A DNA stretch of 64,000 bases. It comes from an uncultured Gammaproteobacteria bacterium. GTDB taxonomy: Bacteria; Patescibacteriota; Patescibacteriia; Magasanikbacterales; GWA2-37-8. The position numbers were made by a program, and so were the translations under genes. Shown one piece after another: positions 2,828 through 17,365 of the stretch. The stretch lies in NCBI GenBank assembly GCA_964355175.1, contig CAYHBZ010000001.1, forward strand, positions 439,400 through 503,399. Direction: 5' to 3'. The notes under the pieces were generated by a model. The model made no database searches and had not been told where the DNA came from. It saw nothing but the letters and a program-made list of their open reading frames with translations. How positions within the stretch are numbered: the stretch's first letter is position 1; each line of letters begins with the position of its first letter.

Positions 2828-3457
2828 TTATTTTCCAAAAACTTCTTCCAGTTTTTTCACACCGTCTTTGGAAGTCAAAACTACGCCTTTTTTTAGCAAG
2901 TCCATCACATTGGCATCGCCAGCGCGTAAAGTTTTAACTGATTTCAAATTCTTGGTCATGCGCAAAACTGCTTCATCTTTGCCAGAGGTCAACACCAAAA
3001 AGTTTTTCAACTTGGTTGGCATCGCGGCGAGCACGCCCGCAAACATTTTTGTTTTTGGTTTATCAAAATTGAAATCTTCAAGCACCAAAAGATTGCCAGA
3101 TTGAGCTTTGTCGGAAAGACACATTTTGATCACGGACTGACGAGTTTTTTTGTTGATCTTGGTCTTGTAGTTGCGATCGGTCAAAGGACCAAAAGCGACA
3201 CCGCCGCCCTTCCAGATAGGAGAACGAATAGAACCGTGACGAGCACGACCAGTACCTTTTTGTTGCCATGGTTTTTTACCACCACCGCTTACTTCACCGC
3301 GATTCTTGGTATCAGCCCAAGGTTCACGTTGATTGTTGGTCTGCTGTACAAATACTTGGTGCACTACTTCCGGTTTAATTTTTACGCCGAAAACTTTGTC
3401 GGATAATTCCATTTCACCTGTTTCTTTGCCGGCTAAATTGTAAACTTTAATTTTCAT
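2828..3457 (-). CDS. rplD: 50S ribosomal protein L4
   Basis: 209-aa L4/L1e family sequence in the conserved position between rplC and rplW. Confidence 0.9.
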   Translation of the reverse strand: MKIKVYNLAGKETGEMELSDKVFGVKIKPEVVHQVFVQQTNNQREPWADTKNRGEVSGGGKKPWQQKGTGRARHGSIRSPIWKGGGVAFGPLTDRNYKTKINKKTRQSVIKMCLSDKAQSGNLLVLEDFNFDKPKTKMFAGVLAAMPTKLKNFLVLTSGKDEAVLRMTKNLKSVKTLRAGDANVMDLLKKGVVLTSKDGVKKLEEVFGK

Positions 3458-4591: not shown

Positions 4592-4957
4592 TTACATTTT
4601 GATTTCTACATCTACACCAGCTGGCAAATTCAAACTCATCAAAGCATCTACACATTTTGGACCGGCATTGATGATATCGATCAAACGTTTGTGTACGCGC
4701 ATTTCGTACTGTTCGCGAGCGTCTTTGTGGACAAAGGTAGAGCGCAAAACAGTGAATTTGGTCTTTTCTGTAGGTAAAGGTACTGGGCCAATTACTTTGG
4801 CATCGTTGCGAGCAGCGGTGTCAATAATAGTCTTGGTGGCCTGGTCAATAATACGGTTGTCGTAAGCGCGGATTTTGATGCGGATACGAGTACCAACTTC
4901 TTCTTTTGCCTTTGGAGCTACTTTTTCAGCTTTAGTTGTAGGATTTGTAGTTGTCAT
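4592..4957 (-). CDS. rpsJ: 30S ribosomal protein S10 with about 20-aa N-terminal extension
   Basis: S10 core [17 protein letters not shown]... Confidence 0.9.
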
Positions 4958-4996
4958 GTTTTTAATTAAATAAAGGAACTAATTAAAGAACTATTT

Positions 4997-5036
4997 GAAA
5001 AAATCATAAGGGGGGGGTGTTTTTCAACACCTCCCC
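4997..5036 (-). terminator. tuf terminator
   Basis: GC hairpin GGGGGGGTGTT/AACACCTCCCC. A U-run follows on the minus strand. Confidence 0.45.
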
Positions 5037-6427: not shown

Positions 6428-7000
6428 TTACTCAACAGGCTCAAGGTAGAATTTTTCCTCTTCTCCTTCGGGTAAATCAGACAAATCTTCCTCGGCAAAA
6501 TTGGTATTTGGGGTCGCTTCCGAAGCGGGCGATATTGGAGCAATATATTTGACTGGTTCAGCAGGTGGCTCTGGAATAGGCTCGGACATTGGGGCAAATT
6601 CAATCTCGTCTTCTAACTCTGAATCTTCTATTTCTTGGCTAAATTTAGCCAAATTTTCTGGTTCTTGGAGTTTTTCCGGTAAATCTTGCTCTTTTTCTTC
6701 TTCTTTGTCCATTTCCTCTTCTTCCAAATCCGGCTCTATTTCCGGCTCTTCATATTGAATTTGAGGCAAAGGGCTCTTTTTTTCATGTTGCTCCTGCCAG
6801 CGGTTGATGTCGTGATTCAGACGGCTGAGCATCTCTTCTTCGGCCAAATTTTCTACTTCGGTAGTAGTATTGAGCAAATCCTCGTACTCATCCAAATTCA
6901 TCACTACCATCGCTTCATCGGTATCTCTATCTAGTACCACAAATCTATCGCCAGTGCGTTTGACCAATCGGATTATTCTGTCCAGTTGTTTCTGTTTCAT
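6428..7000 (-). CDS. Phd/YefM-like N-terminal domain protein with long acidic C-terminal tail
   Basis: The start is placed at MKQKQLDRIIRLV because a TTGACT-17-TAGAAT promoter ends about 15 nt upstream. The N-terminal 45 aa (GDRFVVLDRDTDEAMVVMNLDEYEDLL) resemble the YefM antitoxin fold. The remaining about 140 aa are E/D/P-rich. Confidence 0.5.
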   Translation of the reverse strand: MKQKQLDRIIRLVKRTGDRFVVLDRDTDEAMVVMNLDEYEDLLNTTTEVENLAEEEMLSRLNHDINRWQEQHEKKSPLPQIQYEEPEIEPDLEEEEMDKEEEKEQDLPEKLQEPENLAKFSQEIEDSELEDEIEFAPMSEPIPEPPAEPVKYIAPISPASEATPNTNFAEEDLSDLPEGEEEKFYLEPVE

Positions 7001-7021
7001 AAAAACTAGGTTATATATTTT

Positions 7022-7050
7022 TATTCTATATAAGCAGGGACAAATAGTCA
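7022..7050 (-). promoter_or_regulatory. Promoter for the YefM-like gene
   Basis: Minus strand reads TTGACT-17 nt-TAGAAT. Confidence 0.45.
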
Positions 7051-7171
7051 ACTCAGAAAAATATTTTTCTTCGTACTCCTACATTCTATCTGGCTTTATC
7101 TTTTATGTCTAGATTTGTAAAACGAATTACGGCTCTTAATAAGACGAAAATAACTAAACCAAAGCCTCAGC

Positions 7172-7210
7172 AAATAAAAAATCCAAAGCTCTAGACTCTG
7201 GATTTTTTAT
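7172..7210. terminator. Bidirectional hairpin terminator
   Basis: AATCCAAAG...CTCTGGATT stem with a T-run on one side and an A-run on the other. It lies downstream of the minus-strand gene 7303-7644. Confidence 0.45.
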
Positions 7211-7302
7211 TGGCTCTGACTACAAAATTTATAATCAAAGTGTGGCGCGCCGGATCCTACTCCTTTTTAAGTTAGGGGGCGCGCGGGGTGGGAATGAAAT
7301 GC

Positions 7303-7644
7303 CTAGTGATGGGGCACCTCCTTCAGCTGCGGAGCGGCCAGTCGAGCCGTCTCGACTCGACGACGCCGGCTTGGATCGCGGACGTAGGCCGGAAGATGTT
7401 CTCCGGGACTGATCGAGCTGAACGCCGTCGGCAGTGGCTTGGGCTCGGTGTTGCGGCTGGTCGGCTGGCGCTGGCGCAAAGCAGCCCAGAACCAGGACAG
7501 CAGCTCCCCAGGTTCGGTGAACAACAGTCCGCCGACAATGGCTACCGTGCCGATCACAGGCAACAACGACTCAACGAAGTACGCCACGACGAGCAATGCC
7601 GCCGCGAGGTACTCCATGTAATCACGAAAGGTCCACTTTCGCAT
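7303..7644 (-). CDS. Small membrane protein in a GC-rich islet, two predicted TM helices plus Pro/Arg-rich tail
   Basis: 113-aa ORF with two hydrophobic helices (YLAAALLVVAYFVESLLPVI, GTVAIVGGLLF...SWFWAAL). GC is about 65% against a background of about 40%. The terminator lies downstream on the minus strand. Confidence 0.4.
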   Translation of the reverse strand: MRKWTFRDYMEYLAAALLVVAYFVESLLPVIGTVAIVGGLLFTEPGELLSWFWAALRQRQPTSRNTEPKPLPTAFSSISPGEHLPAYVRDPSRRRRVETARLAAPQLKEVPHH

Positions 7645-7750
7645 TTCTCCCCTTTGCCGGTAGGCAAGGCCGAATTTGGCCCTATACCGGACACAGCTTA
7701 ACTATCATAATTATAACAGAAAGTCAAGGGTAAAGATATAATTATTCAAT

Positions 7751-7790
7751 AAAAAAACCTCCCGAACAATCGAGAGGTTTTTTATTTTAT
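7751..7790. terminator. Terminator of the secreted-protein gene
   Basis: AACCTC...GAGGTT hairpin flanked by an A-run and a T-run. Confidence 0.5.
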
Positions 7791-7801
7791 TTACTTTATT
7801 T

Positions 7802-9550
7802 TTATGGTGTAACCAAATTTACTTTTACTTTTGCCCCACCCTTACCACTGTTACCTTGGTAAGTGAGCTCTACATACCCACCATTTTGTTTGAGCGCATA
7901 TTTTTTCTTGGCATTTACTTTGAGCACTACATTGGTGCTCTTGGCGCCATTTAATTTGAGCCAAACATAAGTGTTATTAAATTTCACTACTTGAAATTTG
8001 AAAACACTACCGTCAAATTTAAACCAGTTATTTTTACAAATAGTATAGATACCGTTGCCGCCCTGTTCATTGGTACAACTATCGCCGGTAGCATCCAGCA
8101 TAGTAGTATTGGAATCTACTTTGATCAGAGCGCGACCTTCGTCTCCTACACCCAAGTAAGTCAACATTACATATTTACCAGGTTTGTTGGTGACATAAAA
8201 AGTTTCTGGCTCATTGATCACCAGATCAGCATCATCTTCACTAAGATTGCTCAATAACACACTGGCGGTTTCACCATCATGATCCACTACTTTAACTTTT
8301 ACACCACTCCAGTAATGATCCACGGCATAGCCGGTACAAACAATGAAATTTACATTGCCGCCGGTGATATCCGAACAAGCTGGCAGAGATGAAGCGGAAT
8401 TGCCTGCGGTACTAGTAGCACTGCCGGCAGTATTAAATTTGAAGTAAGTATAATCAGACCACTGACCGGTAGAGCCGTTTGGAAAGACTGGCAACACACG
8501 AGTGCGGAATTGATTATCTCCGGCCAAAGGCGAAGTAGTGAAACTACTGGAATATGTTTTCCATTTAAAACTATCGGACCAATCGGCACCAACACCACAA
8601 TGATCACAAGCTACTTCCACCATGTAATTGTTGGCATTTTTTACTTCCAACCAATTGATAGTGGCAATACGAGGAAAATTGGTAAAAACAGAATTATTTA
8701 AAGGCGAAGTAATCGTAGTCTTGGATGACAAATCATAGCTTGAAATTGTTTCGGCTTTTTTGGCCTGACAAGCACCGGCTACACAGCCATTTTCACATTT
8801 ATACCACTGAGTATGTACATAATTTTTGCCATTGCCGGAGCTACAGTGAGTTTCGGCGATATAGTCACCGGAAGTTTTATTTTTATCGCCAATATAGGCA
8901 CCACAGCTATCACCATAAGTACCAGCAATACCGCTCACTTCATCATTACCGGTAGCAGTACCATAAACATAGTTATTGAAATTATCGCTTTCAGAACAAG
9001 TAGCGGCTGGAGCTACAGCCGGCTTGCCTTTACAAGCACCGGCCGAGCAACCATATTCACATTTATACCATTGAGTATGAACATATGGATTGGAGCTAGA
9101 ACCACTACAATATTTTTCAGCGATGAAATCGCCAGAAACTTGCCCTTGGTCACCCACATAATTTCCACAAGAATCTTGATAAGAACCAGCCACCTGACTG
9201 ACTTCATCTTTTCCGGTAGCGACACCAACAACATTATAATTCAAGCCACTTTCAGAATCACTGCAAGTAACTACCGGTGCGGCCGTACCAGTACAAGGTT
9301 TCCAATCTACGCGATATTGGGTAGCGGAAAGACAAGCCATAGTGTAATCTTTCAAACCATTACCGGCATCACGACATTCCGAAGTCAAAAAAGCGCTATA
9401 TGATCCATTCACTATCTGAATATCCTTGCCTACCTGAGTACATTTATCTACATTTACCGGATTCCAACCCACTTCCGGCAAAGCTGCTGACGCCATCTTT
9501 GGCGCCAAAGCTACCAGCAGTGCGGCCAGGAGCCAAACACTTTTTTTCAT
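7802..9550 (-). CDS. Secreted cysteine-rich protein with two tandem about 80-aa repeats
   Basis: Signal peptide MKKSVWLLAALLVALAPKMASA. Tandem repeats at aa 96-176 and 185-264 share CS(D/E)S...GDSCG...YVHTQWYKCE(N/Y)GC.AGAC. Native-like composition. Confidence 0.6.
   Translation of the reverse strand: MKKSVWLLAALLVALAPKMASAALPEVGWNPVNVDKCTQVGKDIQIVNGSYSAFLTSECRDAGNGLKDYTMACLSATQYRVDWKPCTGTAAPVVTCSDSESGLNYNVVGVATGKDEVSQVAGSYQDSCGNYVGDQGQVSGDFIAEKYCSGSSSNPYVHTQWYKCEYGCSAGACKGKPAVAPAATCSESDNFNNYVYGTATGNDEVSGIAGTYGDSCGAYIGDKNKTSGDYIAETHCSSGNGKNYVHTQWYKCENGCVAGACQAKKAETISSYDLSSKTTITSPLNNSVFTNFPRIATINWLEVKNANNYMVEVACDHCGVGADWSDSFKWKTYSSSFTTSPLAGDNQFRTRVLPVFPNGSTGQWSDYTYFKFNTAGSATSTAGNSASSLPACSDITGGNVNFIVCTGYAVDHYWSGVKVKVVDHDGETASVLLSNLSEDDADLVINEPETFYVTNKPGKYVMLTYLGVGDEGRALIKVDSNTTMLDATGDSCTNEQGGNGIYTICKNNWFKFDGSVFKFQVVKFNNTYVWLKLNGAKSTNVVLKVNAKKKYALKQNGGYVELTYQGNSGKGGAKVKVNLVTP
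8759..9265 (-). repeat. Tandem intragenic repeat, 2 x about 240 nt, encoding the Cys-rich modules
   Basis: Protein-level repeat mapped back to DNA coordinates. Confidence 0.5.
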
Positions 9551-9620
9551 ATTAATTTAAATTACTCTGCTAATGCAGATTAATAATATCTTTTATTATA
9601 GCAAAAATACAATAAACTTA

Positions 9621-9685
9621 CAAACAAAAACCGCCCGTCACTTAAAACTATAAATAAATTATAATCTTAAGTGAGTGCGGGCGGT
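9621..9685 (-). terminator. Imperfect hairpin terminator downstream of the cytidine deaminase gene
   Basis: CCGCCCGTCACTTAA ... TTAAGTGAGTGCGGGCGG, with a U-run on the minus strand. Confidence 0.35.
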
Positions 9686-9801
9686 CGAAGTGTTGGACCA
9701 TTTTTCCCTCCCCACTTGGCCTAATGACCAAGACATCCTTACGGACGGAGCGATTTGAAATTGCTCTACCCACCATATTTTGGAAGATGGGTTCATGCGG
9801 T

Positions 9802-10775: not shown

Positions 10776-10787
10776 ATAGCGTAAAAA

Positions 10788-10822
10788 AACAATGCCTACT
10801 GAATTGGCATTGTTTTTTATTT
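10788..10822. terminator. Bidirectional terminator
   Basis: AACAATGCC-tactgaatt-GGCATTGTT with an A-run on one side and a T-run on the other. It ends both the plus Zn-ribbon gene and the minus GC-rich operon. Confidence 0.6.
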
Positions 10823-10922
10823 TAAAGACACAATACAAATATTATGTTCTTAATACGGGGTCTGCAGATGCGGCTACAGATTATCCCCTCCCTTTTCCTT
10901 TTGTGAAATGACCGCATTCAAA

Positions 10923-11486
10923 TTAGAACGACTGGATGTAGTTGGTGAAAATCGCTTGCGCGATTCGACTGATCTGACCCTCTTGCGAGACGATCTCATA
11001 GTCGTAATCACCGACATACCCCAAAGCCCAGAAACGCTCCAGCTCCTTTTGCGCGCTAGCGAAACGCGCACCGTCGGCATCCCGACCGTCTTTTCCCAAA
11101 CGCTGACGAAGCACGTCGAGCGAAGGCGGAGAAACGTAGATCGAGAACAGTTGACCAGGGAATGCCTGCTTCATGATCGACAGTCGATCGATCGGCCAGT
11201 CCAGCACCGGGAATTTCTCGGCGGACAGAGCCGCTTCAATCGGCAACCTCGGCGTCCCGTAAAGGATTCCGCCGAAGAGTTCGTTGACCACGAGCAGTTC
11301 GCCACGTTGCGACATTGCATCCATCTGGCTACGGCTCACCGAAACCTTATTCCTCTCTCCTTCCCGAAGCGGACGAGTCATGTAGGGACAGATGTAGACG
11401 AAGCGGTCGTCGAGTTTCGACAACTCGTCGATGACAGCACTCTTGCCCACGCCCGACGGACCCAGCAACAGCATGAACCTGCTCAT
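10923..11486 (-). CDS. Guanylate kinase-like NMP kinase, GC-rich
   Basis: P-loop LLLGPSGVGKS, Gmk-like TRPLREGE, and PPSLDVLRQRL / DYDYEIV segments. The start ATG overlaps the upstream stop (TGATG). AGGAGG lies 6 nt upstream. Confidence 0.6.
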   Translation of the reverse strand: MSRFMLLLGPSGVGKSAVIDELSKLDDRFVYICPYMTRPLREGERNKVSVSRSQMDAMSQRGELLVVNELFGGILYGTPRLPIEAALSAEKFPVLDWPIDRLSIMKQAFPGQLFSIYVSPPSLDVLRQRLGKDGRDADGARFASAQKELERFWALGYVGDYDYEIVSQEGQISRIAQAIFTNYIQSF

Positions 11487-12322
11487 CACTTCCTCCTTTC
11501 CAGGTTGAGAGCTTCTTTCGTCGTGACCGTAGCCATTTGAACGGCTGTTTGCCACGACTCAGAAGCGCCTGGATAGAGCAGGCCGCGAGAAGAGTTCACG
11601 AAGACGCCGAGACCTTCCGAGTTGAGCAGTTTGCCCAGATCCTGGTAGCTTCCACCTTGAGCACCGACACCGGCGAGCAGGATCGGCATGTTGTTCGGGA
11701 TGAGCGGGCGGATATTGTTCATATCCAACCCTGCCGTCGAGGACAACACGGGGATCATGTTACCGTTGCGATTCCAACGATTCACCACCAGGTCCAGCAT
11801 GTACTGCCAGAGCATGCGACCGTCATGGAGACGGACATCCTGAACAACACCGCCGGAGATGTTGCTCGTCTTGACGAGTACAACGACAGACTTGTCTTTG
11901 AGCTCCATGAGCGGTTCGATGACATCGTCCCCCATGTAGGGGTTCACGACGACACCGTCCGCCTGGATCTCTCCAAACAGGTTGTCGATGTAGGCCGCCA
12001 TAGTGTTCTCGATATCGCCGATCTTGCAATCGACAATCACGGGAACTCCCGGCAAAGTGCGATGGACGTAGTGGACGATCTCCTTGAGTACATCATGTCC
12101 ACCGGACATGAGATCGAAGAACGCCTTCTGCGCCTTGAACGCACAGACATGTGGACCAGTAGCATCCACGGCTCCCTGCAGAAACGCCAGAACCTTTTCT
12201 TCCTTGCTCCCGGGCTGTTCCAGCACTGCGCGCGGCAGTTTGGAAAAATCCGGATCAAGGCCGGCGCACAATAGAGTGCCCTGCTCGCGCATACGCGCGA
12301 AGAGTTGCTGATTCGCAATCAT
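11486..12322 (-). CDS. Orotidine-5'-phosphate decarboxylase-like (type 2 ODCase family), GC-rich second copy
   Basis: AGLDPD and VIVDCKIGDIENT preserve the DxKxxD catalytic motif. Paralogous to native pyrF at 41352-42170. AGGAGG SD. Confidence 0.65.
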   Translation of the reverse strand: MIANQQLFARMREQGTLLCAGLDPDFSKLPRAVLEQPGSKEEKVLAFLQGAVDATGPHVCAFKAQKAFFDLMSGGHDVLKEIVHYVHRTLPGVPVIVDCKIGDIENTMAAYIDNLFGEIQADGVVVNPYMGDDVIEPLMELKDKSVVVLVKTSNISGGVVQDVRLHDGRMLWQYMLDLVVNRWNRNGNMIPVLSSTAGLDMNNIRPLIPNNMPILLAGVGAQGGSYQDLGKLLNSEGLGVFVNSSRGLLYPGASESWQTAVQMATVTTKEALNLERRK

Positions 12323-13132
12323 TTACCCCTCCTGGATGTGAAGGCCTTGATGGTTGAGGTGTTGGCCCTTGGCGGCCAAATGGCGAGCGGTATGCTCGGT
12401 GGCCGGCACGATCACCGGCACGAGCTGGTCGCTAACCTTGTAGCCGTTTTCGCCAAAGACTGTAGCCTTGTAGGGGTTGTTGGTCGCCAGATCAATAGCA
12501 CACGAAGACGGCACCTCGAAGAATTTGAGGATGCAGACGACGCCGGAGTAGGTCCGGACATCGATGACGCCACCAGGTGCCAAGAGGCTGGCCGACTCGA
12601 CCGTGTTCACCTTGAGCTGTTCTTGAAGCCAGAGGGTAGCGAGCTTGAAGGTCAAGCCCATCCCCCGGCCATCTTGACGCGGGATGTTCACGATCATACC
12701 TTCCCCGACCTCGGCGAGCGTCTGCATAGCCAGCTTGAGTTGCTGACAGCATTCGCACGTCCGATCGCCGAAGACCTGGCCGGTTTCGCATCCCGAATCG
12801 GTACGCAAAACCAACCGTTCCTTCCGCTTGAAGACGGGGTTGAGGGTATTGAGGTCGATCTCGCCCCGAAGCAGCACGGAGTATTTCTCCCACTGGTCGT
12901 CGATGGCGAAATTGTACTGCCAAAACGACCCGAACTCGGTGTTGAGAACGCCGAGACCACGACGCTCCACGAAGTAGAAACGCCTGTCTCCAGCCTCCAC
13001 GACATCGATGCGCTTCTGCACCGGCTGCATAGAGCTCTGGACGAGAGCGATGAACTTCTCAACTTCCTGAGGGGACATGCCCGACTTGGCAATGATCTTG
13101 ATCATGTCGGGCGGGGGAACGCTGATAGCCAT
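12323..13132 (-). CDS. GTP cyclohydrolase II-like protein, GC-rich, with a non-canonical residue at the ring-opening Tyr position
   Basis: LRTDSGCETGQVFGDRTCECCQQL matches RVHSECLTGD..CDCGxQL (zinc Cys). NIPRQDGRGMGL matches YHRQEGRNIGL with Tyr replaced by Ile/Pro. LATNNPYK matches LLTNNPKK. AGGAGG SD. Confidence 0.65.
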   Translation of the reverse strand: MAISVPPPDMIKIIAKSGMSPQEVEKFIALVQSSMQPVQKRIDVVEAGDRRFYFVERRGLGVLNTEFGSFWQYNFAIDDQWEKYSVLLRGEIDLNTLNPVFKRKERLVLRTDSGCETGQVFGDRTCECCQQLKLAMQTLAEVGEGMIVNIPRQDGRGMGLTFKLATLWLQEQLKVNTVESASLLAPGGVIDVRTYSGVVCILKFFEVPSSCAIDLATNNPYKATVFGENGYKVSDQLVPVIVPATEHTARHLAAKGQHLNHQGLHIQEG

Positions 13133-13156
13133 GGCTATCCTCCTGATGCTTGATGG

Positions 13157-13522
13157 TTACAGATTGGTCGGCGGGTACATCCCGTCGCTCTTCTTCTTGC
13201 CGAAGGAGCCGGGCACCATACGGAAAGCCAGACGATTTTCCGGTTCGTACACCATGGGGGTGGCGATGAGCACATTGCACTGAGGGCAGAGCAGGTTGGG
13301 CAGCGCCTTCTTGTCGAGGGCCTTGCCCTTCAACTCGGCCAAAGTCGGCGGAGCGAAGATGCGATCGACATACATGCGCAAGAGCGCGCCAGGGCCGTCC
13401 TTTTGGTAAAGGGCGACATGGGCGTGGCAAGCGCAGCAGACGATGTTGAGGAAGCGAGAATCGCCTCCACGAGCCCGCGAGTAGCTGTCCCGCTTGGCCT
13501 GAAACTTGATTGGTTCGGTCAT
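13157..13522 (-). CDS. Zn-ribbon protein, GC-rich paralog, first gene of the operon
   Basis: 121 aa. RGGDSRFLNIVCCACHAHVALYQKDGPGALLRMYVDRI...CPQC. 24 nt upstream of the GCHII-like gene. Confidence 0.5.
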   Translation of the reverse strand: MTEPIKFQAKRDSYSRARGGDSRFLNIVCCACHAHVALYQKDGPGALLRMYVDRIFAPPTLAELKGKALDKKALPNLLCPQCNVLIATPMVYEPENRLAFRMVPGSFGKKKSDGMYPPTNL

Positions 13523-13648
13523 GGTTCCTCTGTTAGGTGAGAGTGGATGGTTGTTTGAGCTTTTGGTTAATCATTCATTATCAAAGAACCGGCCCTAGAC
13601 TACCACAATTTTTTGTTTTAAGCAAGGGTACGAGCTATTAATAAATTT

Positions 13649-15406
13649 CTAAAATTTTTGTTTATTCCATAATTCAAAAAATCTACCTTTCTCTTCCATC
13701 AAACTTTTAAAATAACCAGTCTCAATTAATTCTCCATTTTCGAGCAATAAAATTTTATCCATTTCTTGGATAGTGGTGAGGCGATGCGCAATCACTATTG
13801 CCGTCACTTCTTGAAAAAATTTATGCAGTGAATCTTTTATTTTTTCTTCGGATTCCAGATCCAAATGAGAAGTAGCTTCATCCAAAAATAAAATATCCGG
13901 CTTTTTAAAAATCGCTCGGGCAATACCGACTCTCTGCTTTTCTCCACCAGACAACTTTACACCCTTTTCCCCTATCAAAGTATCTAGACCTTCTGGCAAT
14001 TTCGACATGAAATCCGTAATATGAGCCACACCCACAGCCATTTGCAAACGCTCTTTGGACTCTATATTACCGCCGGCCATAATAATATTTTCTTTAAGAG
14101 AAAAATTTAAAACTTCTGTATCCTGCAAAACCACGGCCGTATTTTGGTAAAACGAACTCTTTTTAATTTTGCGGATGGAAATATTGTCGAGCAAAATATC
14201 GCCGGTAAAATTTTCGTACTCCTTGAGCAATAATTTAAACAAGGTGGATTTGCCGGCTCCAGATAATCCCACTATTCCAACTCTTTGCCCGCGTTTGATC
14301 TCAAAGGAAATATTCTTTAACACCGCGCGATCACCGTAAGAAAAAGAAACATTTTTAAATTGAATAGTCTGCCAATTGATTGGAAAATTTATTTTGTTGG
14401 CATCGTTGTCGATCAAAACTTTTTCGTTTAAAACATCTTTTAGACGGCTGACATGATATCTGGCTACTACCAATTCCTGAGAAACGTGGGAGAGCTCCTC
14501 TGCCGAAGTGCGCAGGTTGATAAAATAAAGATTAAACAGCAACAAAAATCCCAAATCATAACGCCCCGCCGCAATACCAAAAGCTATTAAAACCATGGCG
14601 CCGACGCGAAAAAAATGTGACCAATTGCTTTGGATAAAAATTTTGACGGCAAAAATATTAATACGTCTGGCTGTGCTTTTATAAACCTTATCAGCGTAGT
14701 TTCCCAACTTAGGAAAAAGCTGACCAAACATACCCATTACTTTGATACTGCGAATATTGTTGAGAATTTCAAAAGACAGACCATGCAAATCTTCTTCTTG
14801 GCGACTTACTTCCTTAGCTGCGGCCACCACCCGTCTACTTATCGGCATTACCGCCGTGAGATAGGTGACTAAAAATACAAGCACAATCAAAGCCACGCGC
14901 CAATCGATAAAATACAAAATAATTATCATGCCGACAAAGTTGACCCCAATTTCAATCAAATTGTTTATCCAAATTCGCAAAGAGGTTTCTATGCCAAGCC
15001 CGCCACTCTCGATGCATTTGAGGCGATTGCCGGTATTTTCTTTTTCATGCCAAGCAATATCTAGCAGACTGATATGACGAAACGCGTTTACCTGAGTTTC
15101 CAAATTTACTTTTTTGCCAACCTTACTACAAAGAAATTTGCCGGCTTGACGAACATTGTTGGAATAGATATAGGCCAGAGTCCAGATAATAAGTATATAC
15201 CAAAAAGGCTTCAAAGAATCGCCGGGATTATAGTGATTGAAAAAAGAAATAACTTTGGCCAAAGCCAAAGAGGTGTATAGGTAAATGCCGTCGGCGCTCA
15301 AACGCAACAAAGTGGCTAACCAAAATTTACCCTTTTGATTACCCAGAGAGCTATAAACATCGGAAGCAAGAGAGAAATAGGAGTAGTCGGTTTTTGAATT
15401 CTTCAT
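13649..15406 (-). CDS. ABC exporter, fused permease + ATPase (MsbA/MdlB-like)
   Basis: Six predicted TM helices followed by Walker A GLSGAGKST, signature LSGGEKQR and Walker B ILFLDE. Start chosen at MKNSKTD. The ORF track extends to 15466, but the repeat/terminator abuts it. Confidence 0.75.
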   Translation of the reverse strand: MKNSKTDYSYFSLASDVYSSLGNQKGKFWLATLLRLSADGIYLYTSLALAKVISFFNHYNPGDSLKPFWYILIIWTLAYIYSNNVRQAGKFLCSKVGKKVNLETQVNAFRHISLLDIAWHEKENTGNRLKCIESGGLGIETSLRIWINNLIEIGVNFVGMIIILYFIDWRVALIVLVFLVTYLTAVMPISRRVVAAAKEVSRQEEDLHGLSFEILNNIRSIKVMGMFGQLFPKLGNYADKVYKSTARRINIFAVKIFIQSNWSHFFRVGAMVLIAFGIAAGRYDLGFLLLFNLYFINLRTSAEELSHVSQELVVARYHVSRLKDVLNEKVLIDNDANKINFPINWQTIQFKNVSFSYGDRAVLKNISFEIKRGQRVGIVGLSGAGKSTLFKLLLKEYENFTGDILLDNISIRKIKKSSFYQNTAVVLQDTEVLNFSLKENIIMAGGNIESKERLQMAVGVAHITDFMSKLPEGLDTLIGEKGVKLSGGEKQRVGIARAIFKKPDILFLDEATSHLDLESEEKIKDSLHKFFQEVTAIVIAHRLTTIQEMDKILLLENGELIETGYFKSLMEEKGRFFELWNKQKF

Positions 15407-15466
15407 ATATGCAAATATGCAAATTACTATAACATAATAAAATTCAAAAAACAAAGCTGAAAACAA

Positions 15467-15503
15467 AAGACGCCTTTTGATGAAGGCGTCTTACAATGTG
15501 CAG
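15467..15503. repeat. 37-bp direct repeat, left copy
   Basis: AAAGACGCCTTTTGATGAAGGCGTCTTACAATGTGCA matches 16607-16643 at 35 of 37 positions. Contains the hairpin GACGCCTT/AAGGCGTC. Confidence 0.6.
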
Positions 15504-15561
15504 AAGAACGGGTAAGGTGACAAATTATTTTAGATAATTTAAAATAAATTATTTTCTAAAT

Positions 15562-16491
15562 CTAGATATCTTTACGTTCCAGGATATTAAACCCATCCAA
15601 CACCGCATCACACAAAAAATTTTCTAATTGGCTATTATCTTTTTTAGTTTGGGCTTTATATAAAAAAGTATAATATAATCGTTTCTGTTGTTGGTGAATA
15701 ATGGCGGGGGCAAAATTATGTCGCAATAACATTGCCGTCATAAGCAAACGACCAACGCGCCCATTACCATCGGAAAAAGGATGCACCTGTTCAAACTGTC
15801 TGTGGATATCAGCCGATAATGAAATAATATCGCTATTTGATTTTGCGGCCAAAATAACTATCTCGTCAATCAATTTTGGCACACTCATAAAATTGGCAGT
15901 GGCTAAATTTACTCCCAAAATTCTCACGCCATGCCGACGATACAATCCGGCGTCAGATTGAATACCGTTCATCAAAATACTATGTAATTTTAAAATAAAA
16001 TTTTCGTCAATCTTTTTCTTTTTGAGGACATGCTCAAATAAATAATTCAAAGCAGTCTGGTGATTTTTTGCCTCCATTTGTTCGGCCAAACTTTTGTTGG
16101 GCAAGGCCACATTATCAAAAATAATAGCCGCGGTATCCGGCTCTGTCAAGGTACTCCCCTCGATACTATTACTATGGTAGGTCAACTTTAAAATAAACTG
16201 ATCACGGATATCCGGATTATCCAAAATTTCCTTCACAATATTTTTGTGTTCAGATGACTTTTTACTTAAAAATTGTTTTTTGGCAATTAATTGGGTGGCC
16301 GGAATAATTTTTTGACCGGTCATTTCTAAAAACAATTCATCTATGGCTATCTGCATTTTTACTCTTGGTACAGATTTTTCATTCCACCAATTATTGAAGG
16401 CCACAAAAGATACCCCCAGTTTATAGGCTATTTTAGTCTGAGTAAGACCAGACATTTTCTGAATTGTTTCAAGTTTTTGCTTGATTGTCAT
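15562..16491 (-). CDS. HTH-Fic fusion protein (Fic/Doc family, N-terminal XRE-like HTH)
   Basis: Fic motif HPFSDGNGRVGRLL. Inhibitory-helix-like SNSIEG. N-terminal HTH MSGLTQTKIAYKLGVS. Confidence 0.85.
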   Translation of the reverse strand: MTIKQKLETIQKMSGLTQTKIAYKLGVSFVAFNNWWNEKSVPRVKMQIAIDELFLEMTGQKIIPATQLIAKKQFLSKKSSEHKNIVKEILDNPDIRDQFILKLTYHSNSIEGSTLTEPDTAAIIFDNVALPNKSLAEQMEAKNHQTALNYLFEHVLKKKKIDENFILKLHSILMNGIQSDAGLYRRHGVRILGVNLATANFMSVPKLIDEIVILAAKSNSDIISLSADIHRQFEQVHPFSDGNGRVGRLLMTAMLLRHNFAPAIIHQQQKRLYYTFLYKAQTKKDNSQLENFLCDAVLDGFNILERKDI

Positions 16492-16500
16492 AATATAACC

Positions 16501-16529
16501 ATATTAGCAAACTTTATAAAGTTTGTCAA
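16501..16529 (-). promoter_or_regulatory. Fic promoter with palindromic operator in the spacer
   Basis: Minus strand reads TTGACA-17-TAATAT about 10 nt before the ATG. An 18-bp perfect palindrome CAAACTTTATAAAGTTTG fills the spacer. The half-site CTTTATAAAG recurs near 16548. Confidence 0.45.
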
Positions 16530-16606
16530 ATACTCTGATTCTTTATAAAGTTATAAATAGTACGCCTGGAGTGGCAAACTCCATTTCTTCAGTTAGTTGA
16601 GATAAA

Positions 16607-16643
16607 AAAGACGCCTTTTGATGAAGGCGTCCTACATTGTGCA
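16607..16643. repeat. 37-bp direct repeat, right copy, overlapping the tRNA-Arg 3' end and its terminator
   Basis: See the left copy. The last 4 nt overlap the tRNA 3' terminus. Confidence 0.6.
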
Positions 16644-16711
16644 CTCATTAGGAGTCGAACCTAAATTTTCGGCTTCGCAGGCCAATGTCCTATCCATTGA
16701 ACGATGAGTGC
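16640..16711 (-). tRNA. tRNA-Arg (anticodon GCG)
   Basis: Manual cloverleaf. Acceptor stem GCACTCA/TGAGTGC. D-loop AATGGATA. Anticodon stem TTGGC/GCCGA with loop CTGCGAA. T-arm TTAGG-TTCGACT-CCTAA. Discriminator A. 72 nt. Confidence 0.8.
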
Positions 16712-16770
16712 AAATTTAGCTTCAATACTGTACTAAAAAAAGTTGATTTTGTCAACTTTCTTAGTATTTT

Positions 16771-17274
16771 TTAAATTTTCATGATTCGGCCCATTCTGTC
16801 GCTGAGCGGCTCCTCCTCTTGTTCCAAATCCTCTTGCAAAAATTGATTCAAATAATCGCGAATCGGACGCGGATCAAAATCGTACAGAGGCACCTGAATG
16901 CGGTGATGCAACAGGCTATCCTGACTAAAATATAAATTTTTGGTAAAGGGCGGATTATAAATTATCCAAAAATTGTTTAATTCACTGTAGCGATAATACT
17001 TTTTGCCCACCACTATGCCGGTATTGGTAAGAGCGAAATACACTTCCATCGGCTCTACCATATCCTGCATAAATAAAATGATACCAAAAAGGACAGTGAT
17101 AAGCGCGAACAAATAATTGCCCGACACTACACCGTAGGCGACCATCGCGGCGCCAAGCAGTCCCATGGCTACGTACCAACCTTTTCCGCGTTCGTGCCGT
17201 TCGTATTCTTTCACACTCCATTCGTATTGCACGTTTCCGATATTGACGTCGGAATTTAAAATATTTTGCGACAT
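16771..17274 (-). CDS. Hypothetical membrane protein, 2 TM
   Basis: 167-aa ORF between two tRNAs. Hydrophobic segments with an acidic C-terminus. Confidence 0.45.
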   Translation of the reverse strand: MSQNILNSDVNIGNVQYEWSVKEYERHERGKGWYVAMGLLGAAMVAYGVVSGNYLFALITVLFGIILFMQDMVEPMEVYFALTNTGIVVGKKYYRYSELNNFWIIYNPPFTKNLYFSQDSLLHHRIQVPLYDFDPRPIRDYLNQFLQEDLEQEEEPLSDRMGRIMKI

Positions 17275-17291
17275 ATTGAAAATTTGACCAG

Positions 17292-17365
17292 TGGATGATA
17301 CTGGATTTGAACCAGTGACCTTTGCAATGTGAATGCAACGCTCTAACCAACTGAGCTAATCATCC
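17292..17365 (-). tRNA. tRNA-Val (anticodon CAC)
   Basis: Manual cloverleaf. Acceptor stem GGATGAT/ATCATCC. D-arm GCTC-AGTTGGTTA-GAGC. Anticodon stem TTGCA/TGCAA with loop TTCACAT. T-arm ACTGG-TTCAAAT-CCAGT. Discriminator A. Confidence 0.75.

Follow-up and report, generated by a model that had tools for sequence, protein, structure and literature searches.

Composite islands of the staphylococcal cassette chromosome (SCC) and pseudo-SCC type depend on large serine recombinases, CcrAB or CcrC, and use rlmH as their target. Integrons, including sedentary chromosomal integrons and the clusters of attC sites lacking an integrase (CALINs), collect mostly one-gene cassettes at one primary site. Two further kinds of element are anchored at tRNA genes, namely the classical tRNA-integrated genomic islands of the Islander definition (PMC4383910) and the tycheposons of Prochlorococcus (bioRxiv 10.1101/2020.12.28.424599). 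Here, we describe a locus in a window of 64,000 nt (contig CAYHBZ010000001.1, positions 439,400 to 503,399 of the forward strand) from an uncultured bacterium of the Patescibacteriota (Magasanikbacterales, GWA2-37-8), in which a gene for a helix-turn-helix (HTH) Fic protein lies between two direct repeats at the 3' end of tRNA-Arg(GCG). The explanation that we favor, with a probability of roughly 0.55, is that this gene belongs to a cassette inserted by site-specific recombination, with the recombinase supplied in trans. Together with comparable units in relatives, it points to an undescribed gene-capture hotspot in ultra-small bacteria.

The HTH-Fic unit and its junctions

One family of 38-nt direct repeats was recovered by a repeat finder, with copies at 15465-15502 and 16606-16643 (both read on the minus strand) that are identical at 36 of 38 positions (95%). 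A first-pass annotation of the letters alone had described the repeat as a degenerate 37-mer with 35 of 37 matching positions. A pattern match confirmed this identity and the right copy at 16607-16643, and placed the left copy at 15466-15502, one base away from the 15467-15503 given there. The 37-mer and its 22-nt hairpin core each have only two copies in the window when up to three mismatches are allowed, and none in 100 shuffles. On the minus strand, the order is tRNA-Val, a 167-amino-acid protein, tRNA-Arg(GCG), the right repeat, HTH-Fic, the left repeat, and a fused permease and ATPase of the ATP-binding cassette (ABC) exporter type. The tRNA-Arg was located at 16639-16711 by ARAGORN and at 16640-16711 by Rfam (62 bits), and thus the right copy overlaps its last 4-5 nt (16640-16643; 3' end ...GAGTGCA(C)), while the other 33 nt of the repeat lie downstream of the tRNA gene.

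Both copies resemble intrinsic terminators on the minus strand, with a 10-bp stem, a 6-nt loop, and a T-run (folding energies of -15.5 and -15.6 kcal/mol, z about -4). After the tRNA end, the right copy continues with AATGTAG, a hairpin (16608-16633), and the T-run; the left copy, which terminates Fic, begins with CTGCAC followed by ATTGTAA, a hairpin (15467-15492), and the T-run. The probable ATG (15406) of the exporter (13649-15406, minus strand; Pfam ABC_membrane and ABC_tran, NCBIfam MsbA-related) follows 59 nt after the left copy. The only open reading frame (ORF) between the copies is the 309-amino-acid HTH-Fic gene (15562-16491, minus strand), and the noncoding DNA flanking it amounts to 85 nt and 64 nt, with no integrase pseudogene or other debris. 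The earlier description of these features, i.e., a right copy holding the tRNA end and its terminator hairpin, a left copy just ahead of the exporter, and a single enclosed Fic gene with an intact HPFSDGNGR motif, is borne out by the tRNA and terminator calls, the ORF list, and Pfam. Both repeat copies are reproduced with 100% identity in L001, a separate Logan assembly of 4610 nt, and the same arrangement is present in five contigs, which excludes an assembly artifact.

The left repeat copy is the tail of a larger unit. A conserved 45-nt element, here called el3, lies at 15497-15540 (minus strand; ...ATCTAAAATAATTTGTCACCTTACCCGTTCTTCTGCAC|A; nhmmer 45 bits, E = 1e-12), and a copy of the hairpin found downstream of the tRNA directly follows it. 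The element reads ...TCTCAAAAATAGTTTGCCACCTTACCCG-N5-CTGCAC (also given as ...AGTTTGCCACCTTACCCG-N5-CTGCAC), and its end CTGCAC mimics the tRNA end GTGCAC. With the nhmmer profile, 13 distinct copies of el3 were found in eight contigs, one of them in the window. They are 85-100% identical and stand 5-25 nt behind the stop codons of unrelated genes, including the AT-rich Fic gene, a helicase-like gene (whose protein has PbeA and type IV restriction-like matches), a methyltransferase gene, a PIN_12 gene, and GC-rich ORFs. Across 12 aligned junctions, el3 is unstructured and conserved as sequence; only the downstream hairpin pairs, with some compensatory changes.

The profile search returned no further el3 in the window or in 20 other loci. 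A pattern with the N5 spacer, verified on the known loci before the scans, was run on species-representative genomes and metagenome contigs, and outside Magasanikbacteria contigs it gave nothing beyond the approximately two chance matches expected. Within each genome, all el3 copies fall in this single locus. A search for the 37-mer elsewhere had been recommended in the first-pass annotation; repeat and el3 proved confined to this hotspot, and the repeat is not a dispersed terminator. Neither the repeat, nor el3, nor the 5' element described below has an Rfam match. Other identities for el3 were considered and rejected. It shows no T-arm or acceptor pattern of a tRNA fragment, and its similarity to the tRNA 3' end (11 of 19 positions by eye) is mostly due to the final TGCAC; as an attC site it lacks predicted pairing; and it is not a coding C-terminus, as it always begins after the stop codon of unrelated genes. 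The stretch GTGCACAATGTA may resemble the XerC arm and center of Escherichia coli dif.

An optional 5' element ("P-prime arm") is located at the other end of the unit (16568-16603, minus strand; ATCTCAACTAACTGAAGAAATGGAGTTTGCCACTCC), where a small hairpin spans 16567-16583. This element (ATCTCAACTAAC...GAAATGGAGTTTGCCAC) follows the terminator hairpin ahead of six cassette genes, once in the window and otherwise before unrelated genes in contig L008 and, twice each, in L011 and L018. It carries a second copy of the AGTTTGCCAC motif of el3, in direct and not inverted orientation. The pairing of AGTTTGCCAC motifs, one at either end of the cassette, would also be compatible with arm-type sites for a tyrosine integrase.

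Twenty junctions from nine contigs were aligned. On the left, the partner is either the tRNA-Arg 3' end (...GTGCAC), a proposed attB-like anchor, or el3 (...CTGCAC), and on the right it is either a member of the hairpin family (type H1 or H2) or a lineage-specific flank; sequence identity changes over precisely at GCAC|A. One such flank, called X, is joined to the tRNA in L005 and to el3 in L020, and such a tRNA|X and el3|X pair is what would be predicted for an unoccupied and an occupied attachment site (attB versus attR). The spacer of the right copy in the window, AATGTAGG, recurs unchanged at the left ends of cassettes in L018, L023, and L008, and the right copy with its 5' element (16568-16643) is 96% identical to two junctions of L018. 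The spacer variant of the left copy, ATTGTAAG, is private to that copy. Since AATGTAGG is shared with cassettes and ATTGTAAG is not, the junctions are compatible with a crossover at GCAC|A or immediately beside it, the right copy being imported and the left copy native. By eye, a (C/G)TCC(T/C) block lies 9-13 nt to each side of the TG|CA center in the site formed by the tRNA and the H1 hairpin and in the reconstructed attP of a recombinase element (see below). As el3 lacks these blocks, a shared recombinase is not arguable from the sequence.

Variation behind tRNA-Arg among relatives

Using the 167-amino-acid protein as a synteny anchor (orthologs 94, 92, 86, 84, and 75% identical), we compared the locus with that of relatives. 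Homologs of this protein and of Fic are named Candidatus Magasanikbacteria or Patescibacteria. The left side is kept in these relatives (DprA, Pth, Der, LytR, tRNA-Val, the 167-amino-acid protein, and tRNA-Arg), and the tRNA-Arg is identical or near-identical in all of them. In the window, the tRNA-Val(CAC) (17291-17365) and the gene of the anchor protein, which is lineage-specific (16771-17274), form this conserved left flank (16771-17365, all minus strand). By contrast with the conserved side, the DNA after tRNA-Arg differs every time: a small GC-rich gene in L002/L003, a 234-amino-acid gene and a helicase in L004, a helicase in L005-L007, a 155-nt scar and a repeat-protein gene in L036/L038/L040, and a multigene array in L008/L009. 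With different content behind one and the same tRNA-Arg in six related lineages, this is an Islander-type presence/absence polymorphism.

The array of L008 starts with tRNA-Arg, a hairpin, a GC-rich gene of 224 codons, a 78-nt repeat, Fic, a second 78-nt repeat, a 554-amino-acid gene, and a third 78-nt repeat, each 78-nt unit being the 45-nt el3 followed by the hairpin. The Fic protein of this array is 91% identical to that of the window. The Fic unit occupies different slots: it stands immediately behind the tRNA in the window, in second place in L008, and at the end in L011, and it does not directly follow the tRNA in the nearer relatives (L002/L003, L004, L005-L007, and L036). It is always accompanied by its own promoter and operator, with el3 always behind it. 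At least 12 other el3 units have the same tidy layout, mostly with one gene and in a few cases with two to three genes; three of them lie within 1.9 kb in L018. Thus, the Magasanikbacteria DNA after this tRNA-Arg is a variable hotspot of stacked one-gene units. The array cargo across relatives includes PIN, helicase, methyltransferase, and HicA genes; with these and the matches of Fic to phage-defense profiles (see below), the hotspot looks like a depot for defense genes.

Right after the Fic junction of L011, positions 6989-8144 align to window 10776-9624. The conserved right flank therefore resumes at 10776 in the window, and the variable region extends from 16638 to 10777, comprising the Fic unit, the ABC exporter, and a GC-rich block of four genes. 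There is no el3 behind the exporter, which is absent from the matching position in all relatives examined.

Contigs end at this tRNA or its junctions in several samples. In the 86%-related strain, three of six sample assemblies (L035, L037, and L039) break in or right after tRNA-Arg, and L002/L003 break 7 nt after an el3. These breaks are consistent with repeats or strain heterogeneity at the site.

A recombinase is present at the tRNA-Arg of some relatives. The tRNA of L011/L013 is immediately followed by a 2.6-kb element that encodes a large serine recombinase (Resolvase, Recombinase, and Zn_ribbon_recom domains) and a 182-amino-acid protein. In L011 it is bounded by ...GGGTGCAC|A and ...CTCCTGAGCGCTGCAC|A, after which the usual hairpin follows; the right end CTCCTGAGCGCTGCAC mimics the tRNA end at 12 of 16 positions. 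A 155-nt remnant of such an element separates tRNA-Arg from the hairpin in L036/L038/L040 (about 2955-3110 in L036); its end, GTCGAACCTGAGCGCTGCAC, is a degenerate version of the 3' terminus of the tRNA. Site-specific recombination is thus active at GCAC|A of this tRNA-Arg. The additional 2.7 kb of the L008 array revealed no recombinase, and none of the arrays showed a tyrosine recombinase. Relatives of the serine recombinase lie about 1 kb from tRNA-Thr in L024 and about 2 kb from tRNA-Ser in L025. The latter, 46% identical, stands in a Patescibacteria genome beside PrgI, TraC-like, and TraG/AAA_10 genes (L025 1-8509), which suggests that a bacterium of the Candidate Phyla Radiation (CPR) carries an integrative and conjugative element (ICE)-like element that includes a type IV secretion module.

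Other features recur in the arrays. A structured, GC-rich RNA of about 184 nt was recognized at window 9618-9800 (minus strand), in L011 (7967-8150), and in L008 (5673-5858 and 10934-11120). Of its 54 predicted pairs, 11 show compensatory changes among just four sequences, and a long terminator stem forms its end; the copies in L008 and L011 have no Rfam match. In the window and in L011, it lies behind the dCMP-deaminase-like gene immediately to the right of the hotspot; L008 carries it twice within the array, behind GC-rich ORFs. Weaker matches are found directly upstream of el3 in L019 (1320-1466) and L018 (259-379), and once in L005. A W/E/L-rich internal repeat of about 55-75 amino acids (ELENAF.EW...W), with no Pfam family, is common to the 554-amino-acid protein, the helicase C-terminus, and an ORF of at least 232 codons (L008 7850-8800, L011 4480-5100, and L036 3179-3874), and appears to be a recurrent cassette-encoded module. 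Furthermore, the tRNA-Arg T-arm is present in inverted form (GTTCGACTCC) within GC-rich stretches that start with GGAGTCGAAC(G/C)... and lie beside the tRNA or inside the 3' end of the recombinase gene (L005 6685-6800, L020 on the minus strand after el3, and L011 277-297).

The Fic protein and the rest of the variable region

The product of the 309-codon ORF matches Pfam Fic (E = 3e-18) and carries an XRE/RstR-type HTH at its N-terminus (residues about 1-58; the NCBIfam RstR HTH match is below threshold). Its best match in the PDB is the Fic protein of Clostridioides difficile (CdFic, 4x2e; E = 6e-23), with FICD next. The active-site motif HxFx(D/E)GNGRxxR is present as HPFSDGNGRVGR, aligned to HPFQDGNGRIGR of 4x2e. 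In class II Fic enzymes, the motif (S/T)xxxE(G/N) is inhibitory. A motif of this form, SNSIEG (residues about 106-111), is found in the same chain, N-terminal to the Fic core, and aligns with SNKIEG of CdFic (YHSNSIEGST and YHSNKIEGST in 4x2e; the 4x2c entry has A at the S and E positions of the motif). No antitoxin ORF stands beside Fic between the repeats, as would be found in a type II toxin-antitoxin pair such as FicT/FicA or Doc/Phd, and the Doc model gives 20.1 bits against a cut-off of 38.65. Because HPFSDGNGR is combined with a motif that aligns with the inhibitory one of CdFic, the cargo is predicted to be a class II, self-inhibited AMPylase and not an antitoxin-dependent toxin. The first-pass wording "toxin-like" is loose for a protein with an inhibitory motif, no antitoxin partner, and phage-defense candidates as its best profiles.

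Among PADLOC profiles, Fic matches PDC-S04 (E = 3.2e-45) and SoFic (E = 6.2e-28), and its scores with the NCBIfam SoFic and NmFic equivalogs are far below their cut-offs. SoFic is reported to confer protection through abortive infection driven by AMPylation (PMC12249575). From these profile matches, a role of the window protein in phage defense is most likely. It shares with CdFic and FICD the HPFxDGNGR active site and the N-terminal inhibitory SxxxEG helix; unlike these and unlike SoFic and PDC-S04, it is fused to an N-terminal XRE/RstR-type HTH and has a palindromic operator in its own promoter. The Fic part also matches NCBIfam "mobile mystery protein B" (TIGR02613), at a subthreshold 40.6 bits (cut-off 124.4). 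The mobile mystery proteins A and B (TIGR02612 and TIGR02613) are an HTH protein and a Fic protein from mobile-element contexts, and the combination of an HTH with a Fic domain on mobile DNA is alike, except that here both are fused in one polypeptide.

The promoter and operator (16501-16552, minus strand) comprise a -35 box TTGACA (16524-16529) and an extended -10 box TAATAT (16501-16506). Between them lies a perfect 18-bp palindrome, CAAACTTTATAAAGTTTG (16508-16525), with a half-site, CTTTATAAAG, upstream at 16541-16550. The palindrome accompanies the Fic gene in L008, L011, L012, and L027, and Fic probably represses its own promoter via the N-terminal HTH.

The Fic family is widespread in CPR bacteria (6096 matches) at 72-77% identity across phyla, and a homolog in Staskawiczbacteria has a fixed genomic context; thus the Fic gene as such is not always mobile. 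We considered the higher identity of Fic (91%) relative to that of the flanking 167-amino-acid protein (75%) as proof of transfer and rejected it, because the family is 72-77% identical across whole phyla. Nor was there a sign of a viral origin, with no el3, 5' element, hairpin, or close Fic relative in viral contigs; Fic relatives on phages, satellites, and plasmids reach only 35% identity or less. In L027 (Staskawiczbacteria), a 90-nt direct repeat (3046-3135 and 4941-5030, 80% identical) brackets a 212-amino-acid gene and a Fic homolog. The first copy forms the 3' end of a 97-amino-acid gene, and the second repeats that C-terminus in degenerate form (RLVLKNTSNPSVKAT...). Independently of the tRNA-Arg locus, this Fic is carried here a second time by a small insertion without an integrase, in this instance into a gene that encodes a protein.

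The remainder of the variable region is a four-gene block with a terminator (10777-13648, minus strand). Its composition is 57% GC at 10880-13620, in a genome of about 40% GC. It encodes a 121-amino-acid Zn-ribbon-like protein, a GTP-cyclohydrolase-II-like protein, a bona fide type 2 PyrF (TIGR02127, 182.7 bits, above the cut-off), and a guanylate-kinase-like protein, and has no PADLOC match. From Pfam and NCBIfam, it looks like a foreign nucleotide-metabolism operon. GC-rich cassettes are also present in L002, L008, L011, L018, L019, and L023. The segment with Fic and the exporter (14001-17000) has 36-39% GC versus 40-45% across most of the window, which is weakly consistent with a foreign origin.

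Origin of the cassette and its relation to described systems

We propose that window 15498-16638 (1,141 bp) is a self-contained, integrase-less gene cassette which, in the sense of the tRNA, would consist of a terminator hairpin, the 5' element, an autoregulated promoter, HTH-Fic, and the 45-nt el3. Site-specific recombination would have placed it right at the 3' terminus of tRNA-Arg(GCG), with the crossover in or next to TGCAC|A. Because el3 ends in CTGCAC and the cassette begins with a terminator copy, such an insertion would yield two copies of GCAC, an A-rich spacer, and a hairpin. The right repeat copy would have come with the cassette, and the left copy would be the original tRNA-Arg terminator, displaced and now ending Fic. 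Under this proposal, the empty site would be joined at 16639|15497 (tRNA-Arg|ATTGTAAGACGCC...) and a circular form at 15498|16638 (el3-CTGCAC|AATGTAGG). Repeated acceptance of further cassettes by the same site would account for the arrays in relatives. The recombinase would act in trans, one candidate being the large serine recombinase that uses the same crossover point in a relative.

Other histories could be imagined for the locus. It is unlikely, in our view, that the units were shuffled by homologous recombination (RecA-type or gene conversion) after DNA uptake, with the repeats and flanks serving as homology arms and not as att sites. Such shuffling would agree with the failure to find a recombinase, with competence-related genes such as dprA a few kilobases away, and with the ability of 38-115 nt of near-identity to sustain low-frequency exchange. 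Junction repeats are also more uniform within than between genomes (type H2 at 97-100% identity in L008; type H1 in the window, L018, and L023), which suggests concerted evolution. However, homologous exchange cannot create the first pairing of one 45-nt element with many unrelated genes, nor a base-precise swap of the tRNA end for el3 at GCAC|A, nor the el3|X and tRNA|X pair, and the serine recombinase element and its scar show site-specific recombination at exactly this point. More doubtful still is a larger tRNA island that brought its own integrase and decayed until Fic was left between attL and attR, which is close to the integrase-stripped remnant that the first-pass annotation had envisaged. 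The direct repeats around a single cargo gene at a tRNA 3' end would be explained in this way, and the decay of tRNA islands and tandem integrations with att remnants are well documented, e.g., in tycheposon islands. Yet the 85 nt and 64 nt beside Fic hold none of the debris of an island, and the repeat contains merely 4-5 nt of the tRNA; moreover, since at least 12 other units share the layout and el3, independent decay to the same clean boundaries is improbable.

We give hardly any credence to a locus without mobility, in which the left copy would be a local duplication or a convergent terminator and Fic would be vertically inherited. The strength of both copies as intrinsic terminators and the nearly universal, highly conserved Fic of CPR genomes could be accommodated by it, but the locus varies among close relatives with Fic in different slots, the repeat reaches past the hairpin into the tRNA end, and el3 and the 5' element are common to unrelated genes in other genomes at 96% identity. 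Judged by these comparative data, the absence of mobility already seems largely refuted. What stands of the earlier annotation is an insertion of Fic at the tRNA-Arg 3' end with att-like direct repeats and no integrase inside, in a region that varies among relatives and holds Fic in different slots. The remnant gives way to one member of a family of tidy one-gene cassettes with a shared 45-nt 3' element and arrays in relatives, and the repeats are not the classical attL/attR of the tRNA type, because only about 5 nt of tRNA are duplicated and the rest is the terminator downstream of the tRNA.

Several observations weigh against an insertion by a trans-acting recombinase. Recombinase domains are absent from the 28 tested ORFs of the window, and none lies in or near the cassette; in an indirect search of the genome, none of the best 120 matches to the L011 recombinase was a close homolog on the 953,736-nt contig that carries this Fic. 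El3 and the right end of the recombinase element are alike only in GCTGCAC, and no dyad symmetry links el3 to the hairpin side. An exact empty site, in which tRNA-Arg is directly followed by this ABC exporter, had been proposed as a check and was not found among the relatives; neither circles nor excised copies were observed. Being a good intrinsic terminator, the hairpin could owe its conservation to that function alone. Only about six strains carry el3, all as metagenome assemblies, and since the contigs of the closest relatives, L002/L003, end 7 nt after el3, Fic could be their next cassette. Conservation of Fic across CPR bacteria and its fixed context in Staskawiczbacteria belong on the same side.

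As a wider and tentative suggestion, one that we hold well short of an even chance, the Magasanikbacteria may possess an undescribed gene-capture system that is integron-like and yet differently built. In it, tRNA-Arg(GCG) would be the primary site, the double-stranded el3 and the AGTTTGCCAC-sharing 5' element would form the cassette site, and a host-encoded recombinase acting in trans would stockpile promoter-bearing genes for defense and other functions, including foreign GC-rich genes. The CPR comprises bacteria with tiny genomes that live on other cells and cannot yet be cultivated routinely, and little is known of the ways in which they acquire and exchange genes. A hotspot with a recognizable cassette signal would give a concrete and testable mechanism of gene flow for them. 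It would also allow the mining of accessory and defense genes, including GC-rich ones possibly derived from host organisms, and could offer a gene-insertion site and signal once genetic tools for CPR bacteria exist. In addition, it would represent a case of integron-like stockpiling that evolved at a tRNA gene without integron machinery.

The resemblance to each described system is partial. As in the classical islands of the Islander definition, insertion is on the 3' side of a tRNA that is left intact and direct repeats mark the ends. Here, however, the unit is only about 1.1 kb, Fic is the sole ORF between the repeats and there is no integrase, and in place of a displaced tRNA fragment the repeat shares 4-5 nt with the tRNA, the rest being downstream sequence. 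With the tycheposons, the locus has in common a streamlined genome, repeated integration at one tRNA that pushes older elements inward, arrays split by att remnants, adaptive or defensive cargo, and the use of large serine recombinases by a minority of elements (bioRxiv 10.1101/2020.12.28.424599). Tycheposons are defined by their own integrase, replication hallmark genes, and multigene cargo, whereas the cassette holds a single gene and neither an integrase nor replication genes, and its separators are el3, about 5 nt of tRNA, and a terminator instead of partial tRNAs.

As in SCC islands, units are inserted successively at the 3' end of one conserved gene and are bounded by short direct repeats of the integration site, and many SCC units have no recombinase of their own and are presumably mobilized in trans. 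Likewise, only some arrays hold a large serine recombinase, whose action on el3 units would be hypothetical; it occurs with att-like ends at GCAC|A in L011/L013 and as a scar in L036, and is absent from the window. The differences are the target, which is a tRNA gene and not rlmH; the size, with single-gene units of about 0.7-2 kb versus 3-60 kb; and the 45-nt el3 of every unit, which has no SCC counterpart. Integrons are alike in their co-oriented arrays of mostly one-gene cassettes, in the homogeneous repeat at each cassette end, in being anchored at one primary site with no recombinase inside the cassettes, and in a cargo rich in toxin-antitoxin, defense, and unidentified genes. They differ in that el3 has neither the imperfect palindrome of attC (inverted repeats R''-L''/L'-R' that fold as a single-stranded hairpin), the two AGTTTGCCAC motifs being direct and the 12 aligned junctions free of el3 pairing, nor a GTTRRRY core, with which GTTTGCC does not agree. 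Most integron cassettes are without a promoter. The cassettes described here carry their own promoters and terminators, as exemplified by Fic with its operator, and the arrays start at tRNA-Arg instead of attI and Pc beside intI, with no IntI-type gene seen. The Fic cassette is thus a variant of tRNA-anchored cassette arrays, and we file it outside SCC, the tycheposons, the integrons, and the classical tRNA islands because it departs from the defining features of each.

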